NCBI GenBank assembly: GCA_963662335.2
Contig: CAXXVD010000003.1
Coordinates: 128,001-192,000, forward strand
DNA length: 64,000 bases
Origin: Chloroflexota bacterium
Lineage (GTDB): Bacteria > Chloroflexota > UBA11872 > VXOZ01
Reading direction: 5' to 3'
In this document: one piece after another, positions 2,965-63,421 of the stretch
Numbering within the stretch: position 1 is the stretch's first letter
Layout: each line of letters begins with the position of its first letter
Notes under the pieces: generated by a model
The model's database searches: none
The model's input: only the letters and a program-made list of their open reading frames with translations
What the model was told of the DNA's origin: nothing
Translations under genes and position numbers: made by a program

Positions 2965-3080
2965 GTCAATTCAAGAGCGCCGACAGCCACTGCGCTACGT
3001 TAAGGCGAAGGAGCCGGCAGGCACCGCGCCCCCGGCAAGCCCCACCACTTTCCGGTCAGATACGCTCTCCCTGGGGAGAG

Positions 3081-3229
3081 GCTGACAGGGGTAGGTGAAT
3101 GTCATTCCGAGCGCAGCGAGGAATCTAGGGATGCTGATAATGCAAGTCCACGCTCTAGATTCCTCACTCCGCTGCGCTCCGTTCGGAATGACAGGTGAAG
3201 TCGATTCTAAAGTGCCTACCCCTGTCAGT
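3081..3229. mobile_element. MITE family 2, with CTGACAGGGGTAGG TIRs and 9-bp TSD, carrying a GTCATTCCGA palindrome
   Basis: TIRs at 3082-3095 and 3215-3228; TGGGGAGAG duplicated at 3072-3080 and 3230-3238; internal palindrome 3101-3192. Confidence 0.75.
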
Positions 3230-11611: not shown

Positions 11612-11821
11612 GCACGAATCCCACCCGGCGCTGTCGCCCCAAATACTGCCGGCAAGCGGCCGGGCCTGCGGCCAACGCAATGCGGCGCAGGCACCGGCCG
11701 TGACGACATTCTATTCTACCTGTAACACCACCTCCGGATGCCGGACCCGTACCGCGTACCGGGCAAATTTCCTCGCCGTCATGCTGGCATTACGCAAAGG
11801 TCTGCGGCGGGGGACAAGCCC

Positions 11822-11964
11822 CAATGCTGTCGCATTAAACTGAGCGACCGCAAAACTCGCATCCAAAATCTCCGGTAGCGCAGGTTTGCAACCTGTGAAG
11901 CTGTTAGGTCAGTTTTCTCGTGTCAGTCTCGATAGTTCCGGCGGGGGACAAGCCCCCGCGCTAC
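11822..11964 (+). mobile_element. MITE family 1, copy lacking the right TIR
   Basis: GGGACAAGCCC (11811-11821) then CAATGCTGTCGCATTAA; internal GTAGCGCAGGTTTGCAACCTG and REP A; no right TIR after the REP. Confidence 0.7.
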
Positions 11965-15585: not shown

Positions 15586-15654
15586 GGTAGCGCTCCTCTT
15601 TTGATGCCTTTGCAAGACCCCTTCCCGCTTCAGGGCTGACAAGGGTATGTACGT

Positions 15655-15772
15655 GTCATTCCGAGCGCAGCGAGGAATCTACGTTGATGCCCGCCAAGAG
15701 CGGCCCCTTAAATGGCGTATCCCGTCGCTCCCGTTGCAACGCCCTTAGATTCCTCGCTGCGCTCGGAATGAC
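15655..15772. repeat. GTCATTCCGAGCGCAGCGAGGAATCT...AGATTCCTCGCTGCGCTCGGAATGAC inverted-repeat element (family C)
   Basis: Same arms at 3101, 16981, 19105 (x3), 33804, 59434 and a half copy at 63448; loops differ. Confidence 0.9.
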
Positions 15773-16907: not shown

Positions 16908-16960
16908 AGCACTCCTCTCTCCGCTTTGGCTCCAGAAGGGAATCTATGCCCTCTCCTGGC

Positions 16961-17122
16961 ATTGGCAAGACTTTGTAAATGTCATTCCGAGCGCAGCGAG
17001 GAATCTAAGGAAGCCGGTTTTGCAGGACTCGGCTTTGGATTCCGCGAACAAGGTTCGACACCCGCCACGCTCCGTTCGGAATGACACGTGAAATCCACTA
17101 TGGAATACATCTCTCTGTCAAC
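16961..17122. mobile_element. Degenerate MITE family 2 copy
   Basis: Ends TTGGCAAG...CTCTGTCAA; near-TSD TCTCCTGGC/TCTCCTGGG; internal family C palindrome 16981-17085; right part resembles 3190-3240. Confidence 0.55.
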
Positions 17123-19054: not shown

Positions 19055-19104
19055 CTCTTCCGTACTCCTTTATCTCCTAGTCCAAGCCTGTATTTGCACA
19101 ACAT

Positions 19105-19444
19105 GTCATTCCGAGCGCAGCGAGGAATCTAGCGCCTACACCCCGCGTATCCCGGCCTGCGAGACCTCTTAGATTCCTCACTGCGCTGCGCTCCGTTCGG
19201 AATGACACAGACTTACACAGCATGTCATTCCGAGCGCAGCGAGGAATCTAGCGCCTACACCCCGCGTATCCCGGCCTGCGAAACCCCTTAGATTCCTCAC
19301 TGCGCTGCGCTCCGTTCGGAATGACACAGATTTACACAGCATGTCATTCCGAGCGCAGCGAGGAATCTAGCGCCTACACCCCGCGTATCCCGGCTTGTGA
19401 GACCCTTTAGATTCCTCACTGCGCTGCGCTCCGTTCGGAATGAC
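19105..19444. repeat. Tandem array of three family C palindromic units, 119-bp period
   Basis: Units start at 19105, 19224 and 19343; loops nearly identical. Confidence 0.92.
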
Positions 19445-19508
19445 AGAGGGTACGAAGTATGCCGGTGACGGGCGCAATTCCTCAACCGCTGCTGCGCCAA
19501 TCCTGCCG

Positions 19509-20644: not shown

Positions 20645-20806
20645 CAATGCGGCCGCATTGAGTTCAATTGCGGTGTGAACTCCGCCTCCAATATCCGGTA
20701 GCGCAGGTTTTCAACCTGCTGGTCTGCGGGATCAATCCCTTTTGAGTCCTTATCTCAAACTCTGGCGGGGGACAAGCCCCCGCGCTACCTCAATGCGACA
20801 CTCTTG
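20645..20806 (+). mobile_element. MITE family 1, full-length, in a REP A of opposite orientation
   Basis: CAATGCGGCCGCATTGA...TCAATGCGACACTCTTG; flanks AGGTTTGTCCC and GTGCTTGCCCC are decayed GGGCTTGTCCC. Confidence 0.75.
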
Positions 20807-27167: not shown

Positions 27168-27223
27168 CCTACGCTTCAGCCACGGCGGCGTGAGCCCAGT
27201 GAAAGACGCGCGGTGCGATGCCG

Positions 27224-27772
27224 CTAGAAGATCTCGTCGGAAGCGATGATGAATCCCGTTAACGTGGGCGAGGCAAGGGATTGGCCTTCACCGCACACGC
27301 CTATCTCCGCAAAGCCTTGCGTGTCACGCACAAGCACCGTGACCGTCTTGGCTTCAGTGTCCACAATCCAGTATTCTCGCACGCCGTGCCTTGCGTAGAG
27401 GGCACGCTTGAACGTGAAGTCGCGCTCGGCGGTGGAAGGCGAGAGGATTTCGATGACGAGGTCCGGCGCGCCTTGGACGTTCTCCTCCGTAATGATGTGT
27501 TCGCGCTCATTGGAGATGAAGAGCAAGTCGGGCTGCACCACGTCAGTGTTCGACAGCACCACGTCGAAGGGAGCGGCGTAGACGCGGCCTGCGCCGAAGC
27601 GATCTGCAGCCTGCAGGAGCAGCATATTGAGTCTGCCCGAAATCCTTTGATGGGCCTCTCTCGGCGCAGGAGTCATGACCAAGTCTCCATCCAATAGCTC
27701 ATAGCGCCTGTCTTCCGGCGCGTTGCGATAGTCCTCGTACGTAAACTTGATTGCCGGTGTCGGTGTAGCCAT
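27224..27772 (-). CDS. Uma2 family endonuclease (copy 4)
   Basis: RYELLDG, HQ, VQPD, PDLVIEILSPST, K..LYA..GV.EYW. Confidence 0.92.
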   Translation of the reverse strand: MATPTPAIKFTYEDYRNAPEDRRYELLDGDLVMTPAPREAHQRISGRLNMLLLQAADRFGAGRVYAAPFDVVLSNTDVVQPDLLFISNEREHIITEENVQGAPDLVIEILSPSTAERDFTFKRALYARHGVREYWIVDTEAKTVTVLVRDTQGFAEIGVCGEGQSLASPTLTGFIIASDEIF

Positions 27773-27840
27773 GGTTGTCGTCCTCTCTCGGTGCAAGCCG
27801 CATACTGCGAGCGGGTCGCGTCGTATAGCAGCCGTGGCGT

Positions 27841-28398
27841 TTACGCGCCCTCGAATATCTCGCCCGGATCGATGATAAATCCCGCGAGAGTTGGCGATTC
27901 CAGGGTTTGGCCTTCCCCACACGCGCCAACCTCCGCAAAGCCGGCGGTATCCCACACAAGCACCGTGACCGTCTTGGCGTCGGTATCTACCAGCCAATAC
28001 TCTTGCACACCGTGCCGGGCGTAGAGGGCGCGCTTGAAGGTCAGGTCCCGGTCGGCGGTGGACGGGGAGAGGATTTCCACCACCAGGTCCGGCGCGCCTT
28101 GGACGTTTTCTTCAGTGATGATGTGCGCCCGCTCATTGGAAATAAACGACAGGTCAGGCTGGACGACGTCGGTATCCGAGAACACCACGTCGAACGGCGC
28201 GGCATAGACGCGGCCTATCCCCCTGCGCTTAATGAACTGCCCAAGTAGAATGGCGAGATTCATGGAAGCCCTTTGATGGTGCTCCCGGGGCGCTGGCGTC
28301 ATGACTAAGTTTCCATCCAATAGCTCATAGCGCTTGTCTTCCGGCGCGTTGCGGTAGTCCGCGTACGTCAGCTTGATTGCCGGTGTTGGGGTAGCCAT
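27841..28398 (-). CDS. Uma2 family endonuclease (copy 3)
   Basis: Same Uma2 motifs as copy 4. Confidence 0.92.
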   Translation of the reverse strand: MATPTPAIKLTYADYRNAPEDKRYELLDGNLVMTPAPREHHQRASMNLAILLGQFIKRRGIGRVYAAPFDVVFSDTDVVQPDLSFISNERAHIITEENVQGAPDLVVEILSPSTADRDLTFKRALYARHGVQEYWLVDTDAKTVTVLVWDTAGFAEVGACGEGQTLESPTLAGFIIDPGEIFEGA

Positions 28399-28471
28399 GG
28401 TTGTCATCCTCTCTCGCGGCGCGGGCCGCATTCTGCGAGCGGGCCGCCTCAGTTGTAGCAGCGCTCACGCG

Positions 28472-29020
28472 CTAGAAGATCTCGCTTGGATCAATCGTAA
28501 ATCCACTGAGGGTCGGTGAATCAAGGGTCTGGTTTTCATCGCAGACGCCCAATTCCGTAAAACTGCCGGCGTCGCGCACAAGCACCGTCACCGTCTTGGC
28601 GTCGGTATCTACCAGCCAATACTCTTGCACGCCGTGCCGGACGTAGAGGTCGCGTTTGATGGTGATATCACGGTCGGCAGTGGACGGGGAGAGGATCTCC
28701 ACCACCAGGTCGGGCGCGCCTTGGATGTTGTCCTCGGTGACTACGTGCGCCCGCTCGTTGGAGATGAAGAACAAGTCGGGCTGCACGACGTCCGTATCCG
28801 AGAGCACCACGTCGCAGGGAGAAAGAAATACTTCTCCCAGCGAGCGCTCTTCCACAAACTGGTCCAGCCGGTTACCCAATTTTTTTAGCATTCTCTGGTG
28901 ACCCACACGCGGCGCTGGGGTCATGACCAAGACTCCCCCCAATAGTTCATAGCGTTCCCCGTCCGGCGTGTTGCAATAATCCTCGTAGGTGAGCTTGACA
29001 GCAGGTATAGAACGAGCCAT
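28472..29020 (-). CDS. Uma2 family endonuclease (copy 2)
   Basis: Same Uma2 motifs as copy 4. Confidence 0.92.
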   Translation of the reverse strand: MARSIPAVKLTYEDYCNTPDGERYELLGGVLVMTPAPRVGHQRMLKKLGNRLDQFVEERSLGEVFLSPCDVVLSDTDVVQPDLFFISNERAHVVTEDNIQGAPDLVVEILSPSTADRDITIKRDLYVRHGVQEYWLVDTDAKTVTVLVRDAGSFTELGVCDENQTLDSPTLSGFTIDPSEIF

Positions 29021-29092
29021 GAGTACTATCCTCCCTTGCGCCACCGGCCCGGTTCTGCGCATGCGCCGCCTCAATCCCGTAGCGGCCGCGCG

Positions 29093-29647
29093 CTAGAAGA
29101 TCTCGTCCGGGTCTATCGTAAATCCCTCAAGTGTCGGTGAGACCAGTGATTGGCCCTCACCGCACACGCCTACCTCCGTAAAGCCTTGGGAACCCCGCAC
29201 AAGCACCGTGACCGTCTTGGCGTCGGTATCTACCAGCCAATACTCTTGCACACCGTGCTTGGCATAGAGGTCGCGCTTGATGATGAGATCCCGGTCCGCC
29301 GTTGAGGGGGAAAGAATCTCCACCACCAGGTCCGGCGCGCCTTGGACGTTCTCTTCGGTAATAATATGCGCCCGCTCATTGGAGATGAAGAGCAGGTCGG
29401 GCTGCACCACGTCGGTGTCCGAGAGCACCACGTCGAAGGGCGCAACGTAGACCCGGCCGGAGTTGGTATCCTTTACCGCCTGAAACAGAAGGTAGGAAAG
29501 ATTCATCAAGACCCTCTGGTGGAGCTCTCTAGGCGCAGGCGTCATAACCAACTCTCCATCCAGCAACTCATAGCGCTCGTCGTCGGGCGTGTTGCAGTAG
29601 TCCGCGTACGTGAGCTTGACAGTGGGCGCTGAGCGAGCCATGACCAT
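29093..29647 (-). CDS. Uma2 family endonuclease (copy 1)
   Basis: Same Uma2 motifs as copy 4; directly downstream of recX. Confidence 0.92.
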   Translation of the reverse strand: MVMARSAPTVKLTYADYCNTPDDERYELLDGELVMTPAPRELHQRVLMNLSYLLFQAVKDTNSGRVYVAPFDVVLSDTDVVQPDLLFISNERAHIITEENVQGAPDLVVEILSPSTADRDLIIKRDLYAKHGVQEYWLVDTDAKTVTVLVRGSQGFTEVGVCGEGQSLVSPTLEGFTIDPDEIF

Positions 29648-29695
29648 TCTCTCCTGTTGCGGTCTCTCACGAATACATCATAAGCGGCGGCGCAT

Positions 29696-34963: not shown

Positions 34964-35126
34964 TAACGCTGTCGCATGAAACGTAATGGCAATGAGTACC
35001 ACTTGTCACGTCTCCGTTAACGCAGGATTGCAGCCTGAAAAGTTGGCGGGACAATCCTCATTCGTGTCCTTTTCTCTTGCTCCGGCGGGGGACAAGCCCC
35101 CGCGCTACACTAATGCGACAGCACAA
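34964..35126 (+). mobile_element. MITE family 1, full-length (163 bp)
   Basis: TAACGCTGTCGCATGAA...CTAATGCGACAGCACAA with internal REP A; flanks share TTACGG only. Confidence 0.75.
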
Positions 35127-35712: not shown

Positions 35713-38700
35713 ATGCGTAGGCCTACCGTCTTTGGTGTACTTGCGCTACTGCTTGCCCTCGCCGCTATAGTGCTGTCCGGGTGCAACGGTCATCCTGATC
35801 CTCGACCCCCCAGGGTCTTCCAGCCCGGGGACGTGTTTTGGAGTTACCGGCACGCGAGCAAAGCGGTAGAGTCTCCGCCGGTCGTTGTGGATGGCGTGGC
35901 CTACGGCGGTTTTGCCGGCGGTGTCTATGCGCTGGAGACCGACTCTGGCAAGCTTCTATGGCACCTGTACCTTGACCGTAGTGTGAGATATCCTCCCGTG
36001 GTAGCTGGTGGCGTGGTCTATGTCGGCTATGACTATGGTGGCGTGCATGCGTTAAGCGCTGCGACCGGTGATATCTTGTGGCAATTCAAATTGAAAGGGG
36101 AAATGAGGGAGCCTCTGGAACTGGTCGAAGGCGTATTGTTCGTACGTTCCTGGAAGAACCGCAGGGATGAGGAACTGTACGCCCTCGACGCCGCGACGGG
36201 AGAGTTGATTTGGGATGCAAGTGAGTACAAGCTTCACTTTCCAGTGAAGATAGAAGATGGCGTAGTTCTCAATGAATCCTGGGTCGATGATCGCCTCCGA
36301 TACGTGCTTGCATTCGAGGCTGCTACCGGGGAACTTCTGTGGCGCACCGATTTAGAGCGCGATCTCGGTGAGACTACAACGGTGGCTGATGGCGCGGCAT
36401 ACATCGGCGTCTGGGGCACTAGCGTCTATTCCTTGAGCCTCCCTACCGGCGAGCTATCGTGGCGCTTCCCGTTAGATAATGCAATTTGGGGCCCGCCGGT
36501 TCGGGTTGATGGTTCTATCATCTTTCGTACAGATGACGGGCAAGTCTTCGCCCTGGACGCCACGAGCGGCAAACTCCGCTGGCGCTTTCAAGCAAGTGAC
36601 AAGATATATAGGCACCCAGTAGCTGGTCGAGGCTTGGTCTATGTTTTTTCAGAAGACAATAATCTCTACGCCCTGGATGCGGCGAGCGGAGAGCTCCGCT
36701 GGCACTTTCGCACAAGTTCAAGTTTGACTTCGTCTCCCGCGATAGTTGAAGGCGTAGTCTACGTCTTCACTCACTATTCGGACATGTACGCTCTGGATGA
36801 AGCAACGGGCGAGCTTGTCTGGCACTACAAGACAGAAGATTGGGTGGAAGTGCCTCCAGTAGTAGTTGACGGTACGGTCTTTATTAGACCGTCCGCCGGA
36901 CACATCGTAGCGCTCGACGCCGTGAGCGGCGAGTTTCTGCGCAGATTCGAAGCAGGCATGTACCTAGCGGCGTTCACCGTTGTCGACAGCACCGTCTACA
37001 TAGGTCTAAATGGCGGCTATATTGGGGCATTCGACACTACTTCCGGTGAACGGCTTTGGCGCTTCCACACCGATGTTACGAGAACTGCTTACCCGGCCGT
37101 GAACGACAGCGTGCTCTACGTCGCCTTGGGCACCGACCATATTTATGCGCTCAATGGCGCGAACGGAGAGTTTTTTTGGCTCTATCAGACCGATGGCAAG
37201 GTTCTGGCCTCTCCGGTGGAGGCAGACGGCACGGTCTACGCTACCTCGGAGGATGGACGACTCTACGCGCTGGATGCGGTGACCAAAGAGTTGAAGTGGA
37301 GCTATCAGACGGACGGCGGCATCGTTTCCTCACCGGCGGTGGCTGACGGGCTGGCCTTTGCCGGTGCCACCAGTGGGTCTGTCTATGCGCTCGATGCCGC
37401 CAGTGGCGCGCTGCGCTGGCGTTTCCAGGCCGGGGGTGAAGTGCGGTCTGCTCCGGTGGCGGCCGGTGGCGTGGTTGCGGTAGTCTCGCGCGACGGCTAC
37501 GTGTACGGGCTGGATGCCGACACCGGTGAGCAACTGTGGCGCTTCCAAAGCGGCTACTTCGTGGAATCATCGCCGGCGATGGCGGACGGCGCGGTCTACG
37601 TGGGATCGGATGACGGCTATCTTTACGCCCTGGATGGTGAGAGCGGCAAACTGCTGTGGCGCTATGCAACAGGGGGAGAAGCTTGGGGCTCTCCGGCGGT
37701 GGTCGCCGGCGCCGTGTACGCCGGTGCAGACGATGGCTTCGTGTACGCGCTGGATGCCAGGAATGGGGAGTTGCTCTGGCGCGCTGAGACAGGCGACTTC
37801 GTGCAGCAAGCGCCAGCCATGGGTGGCGGCGTCGTGTACGCGGGGTCGGAAGATGGCTACGTCTACGGCCTGAGCGCCGAAAGTGGGGATCTTCTGTGGT
37901 GGTCCCAGATTGATAGCGCGGTGCGGGACTCCCCCGTAGTCAGGGACGGCAGAGCCTACGTGGCTTCCGAGAGCGGAACCGCCTATGCGTTGTTCCTTAA
38001 CGAACCCGAACCGCAGGTTCAGCCGGAAGGCAAGCTCATTTGGCGCTACCAGACGCGCAACAATGTCGCTTCCTCGCCGGCAGTGGCAAATGGCGCGGTC
38101 TACTTCAGTTCTTTCGATCGCTACCTGTACGCCTTGAACACTGCCTCCGGCGATTTCCTCTGGCGATATGAGATTGGGTCGTATCTGCATTCCTCGCCGA
38201 CGGTAGCAAACGGTGTGGTATTCATAGGCTCGCACGAGGGCTACGTTTACGCCTTCGACGCCGTGACCGGCGACCTTAGATGGCGCTATGCAACGGAAGG
38301 CGAAGTGTCTGAACCTCCCACCGTGGTCAGGGGCGTCGTGTACGTTGGCTCGGAAGATCGCCACGTCTATGCGCTGGACGCCGCAAGTGGCGAGCCCATC
38401 TGGAACTTCCAGACCGGCGGCCCTGTGTTTTCCTCCGCTGTGGTTTCGCAGGGCGTGGTCTACGTCGGCTCAGGTGACGGCTATTTGTACGCCCTAGACG
38501 CCGCGACCGGCAAACTCCGCTGGCGCTTCAAAACGGGTGACACAATCTACTACTCCCCGGCAGTCACGGGCGGTGTGGTCTATGTAGGCTCCAGCGACCG
38601 TTACCTGTATGCCCTCGATGCCAAGAGCGGTGAACTCATTTGGTGGTCTGGGAACTACTCCCATGACAGCTACGGGGGCCTCGGCCCTGCGGTGGTTGAT

Positions 38701-38994
38701 GGTGCGGTATTTGCGAAGTTAGCCGATCGCTACTTGCATGTCGTTGACGCCCTTTCCGGTGAGTTCCGCTGGCGCTTTCGAGCCGGTGGCGGCATTACTG
38801 CCCCAGAAGTGGTAGACGGCGTGGTCTATTTTGGGTCATATGACGGCTATGTCAATGCCCTCGTCACAGATTCCGGTGAATTCCTCTGGCGCTACAAGAC
38901 AGACGGTTCTGTTCAGTCTTCCCCAACAGTAGTTGACGGCGTGGTCTACGTCGGCTCCGAAGATGGCTACCTCTACGCACTAGAGGCCCGTTAG
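35713..38994 (+). CDS. PQQ-type beta-propeller repeat lipoprotein
   Basis: LSG-C lipobox; 26 repeats of ~40 aa (W..sP.v.dG.VY.gS.Dg.lYALDa.tG). Confidence 0.92.
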   Translation: MRRPTVFGVLALLLALAAIVLSGCNGHPDPRPPRVFQPGDVFWSYRHASKAVESPPVVVDGVAYGGFAGGVYALETDSGKLLWHLYLDRSVRYPPVVAGGVVYVGYDYGGVHALSAATGDILWQFKLKGEMREPLELVEGVLFVRSWKNRRDEELYALDAATGELIWDASEYKLHFPVKIEDGVVLNESWVDDRLRYVLAFEAATGELLWRTDLERDLGETTTVADGAAYIGVWGTSVYSLSLPTGELSWRFPLDNAIWGPPVRVDGSIIFRTDDGQVFALDATSGKLRWRFQASDKIYRHPVAGRGLVYVFSEDNNLYALDAASGELRWHFRTSSSLTSSPAIVEGVVYVFTHYSDMYALDEATGELVWHYKTEDWVEVPPVVVDGTVFIRPSAGHIVALDAVSGEFLRRFEAGMYLAAFTVVDSTVYIGLNGGYIGAFDTTSGERLWRFHTDVTRTAYPAVNDSVLYVALGTDHIYALNGANGEFFWLYQTDGKVLASPVEADGTVYATSEDGRLYALDAVTKELKWSYQTDGGIVSSPAVADGLAFAGATSGSVYALDAASGALRWRFQAGGEVRSAPVAAGGVVAVVSRDGYVYGLDADTGEQLWRFQSGYFVESSPAMADGAVYVGSDDGYLYALDGESGKLLWRYATGGEAWGSPAVVAGAVYAGADDGFVYALDARNGELLWRAETGDFVQQAPAMGGGVVYAGSEDGYVYGLSAESGDLLWWSQIDSAVRDSPVVRDGRAYVASESGTAYALFLNEPEPQVQPEGKLIWRYQTRNNVASSPAVANGAVYFSSFDRYLYALNTASGDFLWRYEIGSYLHSSPTVANGVVFIGSHEGYVYAFDAVTGDLRWRYATEGEVSEPPTVVRGVVYVGSEDRHVYALDAASGEPIWNFQTGGPVFSSAVVSQGVVYVGSGDGYLYALDAATGKLRWRFKTGDTIYYSPAVTGGVVYVGSSDRYLYALDAKSGELIWWSGNYSHDSYGGLGPAVVDGAVFAKLADRYLHVVDALSGEFRWRFRAGGGITAPEVVDGVVYFGSYDGYVNALVTDSGEFLWRYKTDGSVQSSPTVVDGVVYVGSEDGYLYALEAR

Positions 38995-53560: not shown

Positions 53561-53650
53561 AGCAACCTTCCGCTTGGAAGTGAAATCGCACCCTCACCCC
53601 GGCTCTCTCCCCAGGTAGGGAGCCATTCCGCACAGGCGGGGGACAAGCCC

Positions 53651-53813
53651 TCATGCTGTCGCACTAGACAGAACGATAGCAAAACCCGCGTCTCAAATCT
53701 CCAGCAGCGTAGGTTTGAAACCTATGAGGCTATTAGGTCAATCCTTTTTCATGTCAGTTTCAATAGTTCCGGCGGGGGACAAGCCCCCGCGCTACGTTAA
53801 TGCGACAGCATAG
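53651..53813 (+). mobile_element. MITE family 1, full-length with perfect 11-bp TSD
   Basis: GGGACAAGCCC at 53640-53650 and 53814-53824; TIRs TCATGCTGTCGCACTAG and TTAATGCGACAGCATAG. Confidence 0.85.
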
Positions 53814-53883
53814 GGGACAAGCCCTCGCGCTACGGCCCTCTCCCGCGGAGAGAGGAAGATAGAGTTGCGGCCGCTTGTCGGTG

Positions 53884-63233: not shown

Positions 63234-63258
63234 GCCAAAACCGGCAGGGGACAAACCC

Positions 63259-63421
63259 CAAGGCTAGCGCACTTAACCCATTGGCGATAGGAGCCACGCC
63301 CCTACATCTCCGGCAGCGCAGGTTTGTAACCTGCGAGGCTTTGGCGTCAATCCTTTGCGTGTGCTTTTCTCTTGCTCCGGCGGGGGACAAGCCCCCGCGC
63401 TACGCGAACGCGGCGCCATGC
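63259..63421 (+). mobile_element. MITE family 1, degenerate copy
   Basis: Left flank GGGACAAACCC, decayed TIRs, both internal hairpins at the same offsets as in other copies. Confidence 0.65.

Follow-up and report, generated by a model that had tools for sequence, protein, structure and literature searches.

Anatomy of the element and its insertion site

The window analysed here (the whole 64,000-nt stretch G000:C3:128001-192000, from a 3.23-Mb assembly of 64.5% G+C in 5 contigs) holds at 53651-53813 one 163-bp copy of a MITE family of ~162 bp, which lies between the two halves of a REP palindrome and itself bears a complete REP. The question raised by this arrangement is what moves such an element, how its landing site is chosen and whether the REP that it carries is of any consequence. 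The features of the locus and of the four other elements in the window are as follows.

53651..53813, + strand: full-length MITE copy (163 bp), both TIRs present
53651..53668, + strand: left TIR, begins TCATGCTGTCGCACTAG; family consensus (C/T)AATGCTGTCGCATTAAAC
53796..53813, + strand: right TIR, ends GTTAATGCGACAGCATAG; forms a stem with the left TIR when folded as single-strand DNA
53771..53795, + strand: carried intact REP-A, GGCGGGGGACAAGCCCCCGCGCTAC; GTAG-headed on the minus strand; invariant in the alignment
~53704..53726, + strand: internal REP-C-like hairpin, family consensus GTAGCGCAGGTTTGTAACCTGCG; inverted relative to the carried REP-A
53640..53650, + strand: left copy of the 11-bp TSD, GGGACAAGCCC; 0 mismatches
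53814..53824, + strand: right copy of the 11-bp TSD, GGGACAAGCCC; perfect match to the left copy
53635..53650, + strand: left half of the split target REP-A
53814..53833, + strand: right half of the split target REP-A (GGGACAAGCCCTCGCGCTAC)
11822..11964, + strand: MITE copy without right TIR, in the same orientation as its target REP-A; left half of the target at 11806-11821; ends at REP-A 11940-11964
20645..20806, + strand: MITE copy of 162 bp, in opposite orientation within a degenerate REP-A; right TIR degenerate
34964..35126, + strand: MITE copy of 163 bp at a non-REP site; TSD only approximate, GTTACGG versus GTTTACGG (by eye)
63259..63421, + strand: degenerate MITE copy with degenerate TIRs; REP-A-like left flank at 63243-63258

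The complete REP-A of the 53651 copy lies directly before the right TIR and has the same sequence as the 499 REP-A copies of the genome and the REP-A that flanks the RAYT gene, while REP-C, likewise GTAG-headed, is found ~45 nt upstream of it. When the flanks of the copy are joined, a GTAG-headed palindrome is obtained, GGCGG followed by GGGACAAGCCC and TCGCGCTAC, which is REP-A, and the duplicated 11 bp form the tip of its stem-loop. All five window elements are homologous on alignment, and the columns of the internal REP-A are invariant across six aligned rows (five window copies and one copy from the congener G011). The initial annotation had reported five related elements at these positions, one with a perfect 11-bp TSD (the 53651 copy), one in opposite orientation within a REP-A (the 20645 copy) and, by implication, one without a right TIR (the 11822 copy), and all of this held.

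The single-strand DNA fold of the element is more stable than that of 200 shuffled sequences (z = -5.0). Within it, REP-A makes its own hairpin, REP-C and REP-A are unpaired with each other, and the TIRs give a long stem.

Genome-wide census

Seventy-two MITE bodies, each comprising a left TIR, the internal REP-C and a complete internal REP-A, were counted in the 3.23-Mb genome, together with 8 further records in which the internal REP-A is interrupted by another MITE copy. The copies are spread over all 5 contigs with unrelated flanks, and the family is characterised by TIRs of ~18 bp, a TSD of 10-11 bp and a size (162-163 bp, multi-copy) that leaves no room for a transposase gene. Searched against its own genome by blastn, the element gave 532 matches, 91 of them of at least 70 bp; the best other genomic copy, C3:579638-579794, is 88% identical to the 53651 element. 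The 15-nt TIR core occurs 202 times in the genome at up to 3 mismatches, as against 28 occurrences of a reversed control pattern. REP-C was found in 198 genomic copies, 88 of which stand in the MITE arrangement.

Eleven of the 41 MITE-spaced TIR pairs in this genome are bounded by a perfect TSD in the fixed 11-bp frame, and the other pairs show one mismatch (4), two (4) or at least three (22); several TSDs are 10 bp long or shifted by 1 nt, and some TIR pairs are nests. The median pairwise identity among the copies of this genome is 72%, a low value which indicates that they are old and which fits the imperfect TSDs. A possible further MITE family, sharing the left TIR and having the palindrome REP-B (GTAGGGGCACGACATGTCGTGCCCCTAC), was considered and rejected: in 5 of 5 examples there was no right TIR within ~380 nt inward of the left one.

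Targeting of the REP-A hairpin apex

Fifty-five of the 72 bodies are inserted at one fixed position, the apex of the REP-A hairpin, REP-A making up 0.39% of the genome. Among these, 39 are oriented like the REP and 16 opposite to it (binomial p = 0.003). The earlier description of a MITE that enters a REP hairpin at a fixed position, in both orientations and with an 11-bp TSD, while carrying an intact REP (at 53771-53795 in the window copy), is borne out at genome scale, the REP targeting by these 55 insertions and the cargo by the complete internal REP-A of all 72 bodies. The remaining 17 bodies lie outside REP-A and have placed REP-A at non-REP-A loci. Some of them are found in the palindrome GTAGGGGCGGTTCGCGAACCGCCCCTAC with a 10-bp TSD and others in a repeat of the CCCTCACCC type, REP-D is also among the targets (TSD GTTCGCGAAC), and the copy at C5:640040 has a perfect 11-bp TSD, CGGGCATTCTC, at a site that is neither palindromic nor a REP.

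With up to 3 mismatches allowed, REP-A (GTAGCGCGGGGGCTTGTCCCCCGCC, GTAG-headed) is present in 499 copies, of which 259 are exact. A single Y1_Tnp match, an open frame of 166 aa taken as the RAYT, was found in the genome, and this gene is flanked in inverted orientation by REP-A, two copies to one side of it and four to the other. The RAYT orthologue of G011 scores 95.9 bits on NF047646 (REP_Tyr_transpos; cut-off 80). REP-A is therefore an ordinary RAYT-associated REP, exploited by the MITE and by the IS described below.

The autonomous partner, an IS4-family element

Two long-spaced TIR pairs in this genome enclose DDE_Tnp_1 matches, and both of these IS copies are broken. One, at C2:441580-442637 (1058 bp), is frameshifted and lacks the initial ~83 positions of the IS4 model; the other, at C3:445030-445786 (757 bp), has a TGA stop inside. 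PF01609 matches the two translated fragments of the broken IS of this genome. The intact IS is present in four copies in the congener G011, each of 1194 bp and coding for a 367-aa protein (P0001). A search of the other 15 of 16 congeners with a 192-aa fragment as query (E <= 1e-10) found no intact IS, and in the present genome one could be unassembled (5 contigs, 96% complete).

P0001 scores 156.9 bits on the NCBIfam model transpos_IS4_1 (NF033592; cut-off 115), and the YREK motif, Y(2)R(3)E(6)K, is visible in it as YRKRWQIELFFRWLK. The ends of the G011 IS, CAATG(C/T)TGTCGCATTAA, are the same TIRs as those of the MITE. The end CAATGCTGTCGCATTAA and the 11-bp TSD fit the IS4-subgroup pattern -AATR--------WTW with direct repeats of 10-13 bp, as tabulated in PMC2266710 (Table 1). 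In its size of 1194 bp the IS lies below the 1400-1650 bp given there for the IS4 subgroup, which is a typical range and not a strict criterion, and its relatives measure ~1211-1235 bp. The IS4-like affiliation surmised in the initial annotation is thus supported by model score, motif, ends and direct repeats, and the proposed look for a transposase gene within the same TIRs led to this element, intact in G011 and broken twice here.

All four G011 copies of the IS are in REP apices with perfect 11-bp TSDs (GGGCTCGTCCC, GGGACAAGCCC twice and GGGCTTGTCCC). One of them is located inside the carried REP of a MITE, and another in a REP adjoining a RAYT gene.

The proteins nearest to P0001 in the databases are 50-56% identical, mostly on contigs of ~1.2 kb, and where their sources name them they are called 'IS4 family transposase'. 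Nine related loci (37-57% aa identity) from other Chloroflexota and one Rubrobacteraceae MAG were inspected. Eight of them (L032-L039) have related terminal repeats on both sides, those of L038 and L039 diverging further from the family consensus than those of L032-L037, which are close to it, and in L040 the left end only was recognised. By eye, several of these ISs are placed at the tip of other GTAG...CTAC palindromes with TSDs of 9-11 bp: the TSD of L035 is perfect (CGGGCTTGCCC), the IS of L039 is within GTAGGGGCGAGGCATGCCTCGCCCCTAC, L034 is a further palindrome-tip case, and no clear TSD was seen in L033. Since related ISs are found at the tips of other palindromes, hairpin-tip targeting looks like a property of the IS clade as a whole, and that these palindromes are unrelated in sequence is a hint that structure is what is recognised.

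Recent mobility in a congener

MITE or REP-plus-TIR matches were found in 16 of 16 congeners and in none of the 24 genomes searched from other genera of the same class. Across the congeners the module of REP-A plus right TIR is 93-98% conserved; this includes G012, in which no MITE body can be recognised upstream of the REP. G011 gave 66 matches in this search, and 20 copies were fetched from it, these being the top full-length matches and not a random sample. All 20 are 162 bp long, and a perfect 11-bp TSD surrounds 19 of them; the twentieth fits with a 1-nt shift (by eye). Their median pairwise identity is 96%, compared with 72% in the present genome. Thirteen are inserted in REP-A in the same orientation, six in the opposite orientation and one (L068) in a different hairpin; the apex of a REP-A-type hairpin is the site of 19 of the 20, and 18 of these share one 11-bp frame. 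The MITE family has been recently active in G011, and is old and probably inactive in the genome under study. MITE activity correlates with an intact IS, as both are found in G011.

Empty sites were sought by BLAST of the G011 MITE flanks against the present genome, followed by local alignments of the flanks. At 10 G011 loci both flanks were colinear here, and these comprised 2 clean empty sites, 2 ambiguous cases and 6 without a homologous REP. At the two clean sites (L058 and L066) the flank alignments overlap by exactly 11 bp on a REP-A that is intact here, as an empty site should show. No informative empty site was found for the copy at 53651-53813, whose orthologous intergenic region in G011, G006 and G012 is without REP-A and MITE; the genes flanking it are conserved in 16 of 16 congeners and the intergenic DNA is not. 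For the copy at C5:640040, the same three genomes are without a whole block of ~330 bp, the target included. Orthologous empty sites, on which the original proposal depended, do exist, and its expectation of consistent TSDs stands for G011 and holds in part for this genome, where 11 of 41 TIR pairs are perfect.

Nests and loss of the right terminal repeat

The MITE-inside-MITE nests anticipated earlier are present as dimers and one trimer arranged head to tail, each following copy beginning exactly at the GCCC of the carried REP-A before it. Five of the 8 nest host records pair a host with an inner unit only 0.54-0.74 identical to it, and these five are independent insertions rather than tandem duplications; in the three others, with identities of 0.91-0.94, duplication is possible. 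The right end was detectable in five nest chains, and comparison of the outer-left flank with the right flank gave matches at 9-10 of 11 positions in three, a partial match in one and none in one.

The right TIR is missing from 23 of the 39 same-orientation copies, the window copy at 11822-11964 among them, as against 4 of the 33 others (Fisher p = 6e-5) or 3 of the 16 opposite-orientation copies (p = 0.008). Those without a good right TIR outside the same-orientation class are these 3 opposite-orientation copies, two of which keep a partial right TIR (score 10 of 18, by eye), and 1 non-REP copy. Among the young insertions of G011, the right TIR is kept in 13 of 13 same-orientation copies examined. 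Arrays of the 38-bp unit (REP-half plus TIR), uncollapsed or expanded, are also present. The single copies without a right TIR, like the nest pattern, may have arisen because same-orientation insertion leaves 38-bp direct repeats that collapse.

Proposed mechanism

With the anatomy, TSDs, target position, partner IS, nests and empty sites established by sequence comparison, the reading that we consider best, at a probability of about 0.9, is that the family would be a non-autonomous DNA transposon of ~162 bp that targets the REP-A apex, is mobilised in trans by an IS4-type transposase, carries REP-A as cargo and decays by a 38-bp deletion. The DDE transposase of the 1194-bp IS, which has the same ~18-bp TIRs, would act on the MITE by cut-and-paste chemistry, as expected from what is known of the IS4 family. 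Its two cuts would be offset by 11 bp (sometimes 10) and lie symmetrically about the tip of a stem-loop palindrome, and it might recognise its target by structure rather than by sequence. The preferred target would be the RAYT-associated REP-A, GGCGG[GGGACAAGCCC]CCGCGCTAC, in either orientation, with other palindromes and some non-palindromic sites used less frequently.

Each insertion into REP-A would split one REP-A and deposit one intact copy, which could later serve as the landing site of another MITE or of the IS. An insertion in the same orientation would leave at the right end a near-tandem direct repeat (REP-3'part ... TIR-R ... REP-3'part), and a 38-bp deletion at this repeat would remove TIR-R and so immobilise the copy. 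The same 38-bp collapse within nests would yield head-to-tail dimers and trimers.

Alternative explanations and the role of the carried REP

Two other origins were weighed against transposition by the IS4-type enzyme. The RAYT (HUH/Y1) might have moved a REPIN-like REP-C/REP-A doublet, or a 136-nt single-strand unit, into REPs, with the TIRs being incidental. The two inverted GTAG-headed palindromes of the interior, the head-to-tail arrays and the 23 copies that resemble a unit of ~136 nt inside REP-A, without right TIR, would suit such a history. Yet Y1 transposons (IS200/IS605) are not known to generate a TSD, whereas the unit from TIR to TIR lies between perfect 11-bp TSDs in 19 of 20 young copies and at non-REP sites, an IS with the same TIRs and TSD exists, and the same-orientation copies of G011 retain the right TIR throughout, so that movement by the RAYT appears very improbable. 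It is still harder to credit that the element is immobile, a BIME-like mosaic whose copies were multiplied by recombination, slippage and segmental duplication alone. Slippage and duplication are indeed at work here, as seen in the 38-bp arrays of REP-half and TIR and in the tandem units, 91-94% identical, at C2:162310-162443 and C2:747122-747550, but copies dispersed over every contig between unrelated flanks, precise TSDs, empty sites that differ by exactly the element plus 11 bp, and a burst confined to one genome with an intact IS all speak against it. Both the RAYT-mobilised and the purely recombinational origin were rejected on the evidence of the TSDs and the IS.

More evenly balanced is the role of the cargo within the IS4-mobilised element. 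The carried REP was the target in 6 of the 55 REP-A insertions, compared with 17.7% expected under equal use (p = 0.22); its reuse is therefore real, and no preferential self-targeting is apparent. The number of intact REP-A is the same before and after an insertion into REP-A, 409 of the 499 REP-A copies are outside the MITE arrangement, and a RAYT flanked by REP-A exists. All of this would agree with an ordinary REP-targeting MITE whose cargo REP serves no function and whose self-renewal makes no measurable difference either to the MITE or to the REP population, a possibility to which we give a little less than an even chance. Against it stand the 90 of 499 REP-A copies that are MITE-borne, the 17 of 72 copies outside REP-A that have put REP-A at new loci, and the conservation of the REP-A plus right TIR module among the congeners, G012 included. 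The claim of a self-renewing system in the initial annotation survives, then, as to reuse of the carried REP and not as to any preference for it or gain in intact REP-A; that of a RAYT-independent spread of REPs is weakened by the intact RAYT flanked by REP-A and by the larger share of REP-A outside the MITE arrangement, and a major contribution of this kind is not supported.

A stronger version, which we regard as speculative and rather unlikely, is that the IS4-type lineage might be both a second-order parasite and a partial propagator of the REPIN-RAYT system. It would land on a REP, carry a REP together with a second inverted GTAG palindrome, renew its own targets and seed REPs at new loci, and it might even have two mobilisation routes, one by DDE through the TIRs and one by HUH through the REP pair.

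Relation to known systems and significance

REP-specific ISs are established, namely IS1397/ISKpn1, IS621, ISPpu9/10, ISPa11 and ISPsy8 (PMC1525189; PMC3184786), and GTAG REPs have been reported in Chloroflexi (PMC3733652). The closest parallel to the present element is ISRm22 of Sinorhizobium meliloti, which likewise has an IS4-family DDE transposase and of which all copies are in REPs, inserted on the palindrome axis with 6-bp direct repeats (PMC1525189). It differs in the length of these repeats (11 bp here) and in its assignment to the subgroup IS4Sa (PMC2266710), the ends found here fitting the subgroup IS4 and not IS4Sa; the account of ISRm22 in PMC1525189 mentions no REP-carrying MITE derivative. 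The partner IS resembles the IS4 subgroup, with IS4 of E. coli as type, in its ends, direct repeats of 10-13 bp, single ORF and YREK motif, and departs from it in combining a shorter length than is typical with a 367-aa transposase; some members of that subgroup are described as having strong conservation in the target arms (PMC2266710). IS1397/ISKpn1 (IS3) and IS621, ISPpu9, ISPpu10 and ISPa11 (IS110) also occupy a fixed position in REPs or palindromic units, as here (PMC1525189; PMC3184786). They belong to other transposase families, with TSDs of 0-3 bp and, for the IS110 members, no TIRs, and no REP-carrying MITE is described for them in the relevant text of these two papers.

The REPIN-RAYT system is similar in two respects: a GTAG-headed REP (REP-A, 499 copies) surrounds a single RAYT in inverted orientation, and the MITE contains two inverted GTAG palindromes. 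Unlike a REPIN, in which two copies of the same REP are inverted and form one long hairpin, the MITE contains palindromes that differ (REP-C and REP-A, not identical arms) and do not pair as a hairpin-forming doublet, and the mobile unit has TIRs and TSDs at its borders and a DDE IS as its counterpart. As an origin of the element, the capture of a REPIN put forward in the initial annotation is hypothetical. Plant MITEs were reportedly found by Jiang and Wessler in 2001 to be inserted within other MITE copies; such nesting is a consequence of a short target and a high density. The nests described here are alike in being MITEs inside MITEs and differ in that the MITEs land in a host repeat which they also carry as cargo.

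In the full-text literature (supplements and ISfinder being outside this scope) no description was found of a MITE that both targets REPs and carries an intact one, and the main text of the MITE review PMC10969869 leaves REPs unmentioned. As far as these sources extend, REP-specific ISs, one of them from the IS4 family, are known, and the new feature is a MITE that both targets and carries a REP.

With an intact IS and a recent burst in G011 and only decayed copies in its relatives, a clean natural system is available in which one can ask how a DDE transposase recognises a hairpin tip, how the unrelated DDE/MITE and HUH/REP mobile systems interact, and how orientation-dependent deletions inactivate MITEs. 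For annotators there is a practical warning as well: of what is annotated as "REPs" in such genomes, about one fifth may be cargo of MITEs and not products of the RAYT.

Orientation of the MITE and the products of insertion

Comparison of each MITE with the REP-A palindrome that it had entered revealed a predominance of the same orientation throughout the genome to which the window belongs, with 39 insertions in the same orientation as the target and 16 in the opposite one (p = 0.003), and the corresponding counts in the congeneric genome G011 were 13 and 6. Arrays whose units of ~38 bp consist of the 3' part of REP-A and the TIR occur at four places in the window's own genome, outside the window. 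These are probably the products of same-orientation insertion, either left uncollapsed or expanded by slippage.

Arrays of ~38-bp units (contig:position)
C1:361580
C2:43038
C4:25192
C3:380627-380900

Elements sharing an end with the MITE or its IS partner

In G011, an intact copy of the IS lies within one of several REPs immediately flanking the RAYT gene (locus L023, 1145-2950), and the REP-targeting IS thus adjoins the very gene that is thought to spread its targets.

In a second congener, G012, a module of REP-A and the right TIR is located ~110 bp from many contig ends, including that of locus L020 (G012:C49), and the DNA upstream of the module's REP bears no recognisable similarity to the body of the MITE from the window's genome. 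This suggests that the module belongs to another multi-copy element, which has this end in common with the MITE.

The left TIR of the MITE also heads a second repeat type in the window's genome, outside the window. The sequence following the TIR is similar to the IS end (CAATGCTGTCGCATGAACCGC...), and ~90 nt further on lies a different palindrome, GTAGGGGCACGACATGTCGTGCCCCTAC, of which the genome holds 91 copies. In all five examples, the stretch of ~380 nt that extends inward from the left TIR contained no right TIR.

Examples of the second left-TIR repeat type (contig:position)
C1:356156
C1:673248
C2:569662
C1:37575
C2:538999

Other repeats within the window

Further repeat families were observed in the window, among them a dispersed repeat with the core GTCATTCCGAGCGCAGCGAGGAATCTA.

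Other repeats (window positions)
19084-19450, 3080-3127, 15634-15681 and 16960-17007: dispersed repeat with GTCATTCCGAGCGCAGCGAGGAATCTA core (families D7 and D10)
19094-19450: three 119-bp units in tandem, part of the same dispersed repeat
27218-29659: four ~622-bp units in tandem, 70-88% identity (families D1 and D2)
35922-38981: many diverged repeats with a period of 120 nt (families D4, D8, D9 and D11)

The 120-nt-period repeats may correspond to blade units in a repeat protein, for example a beta-propeller, which they resemble.
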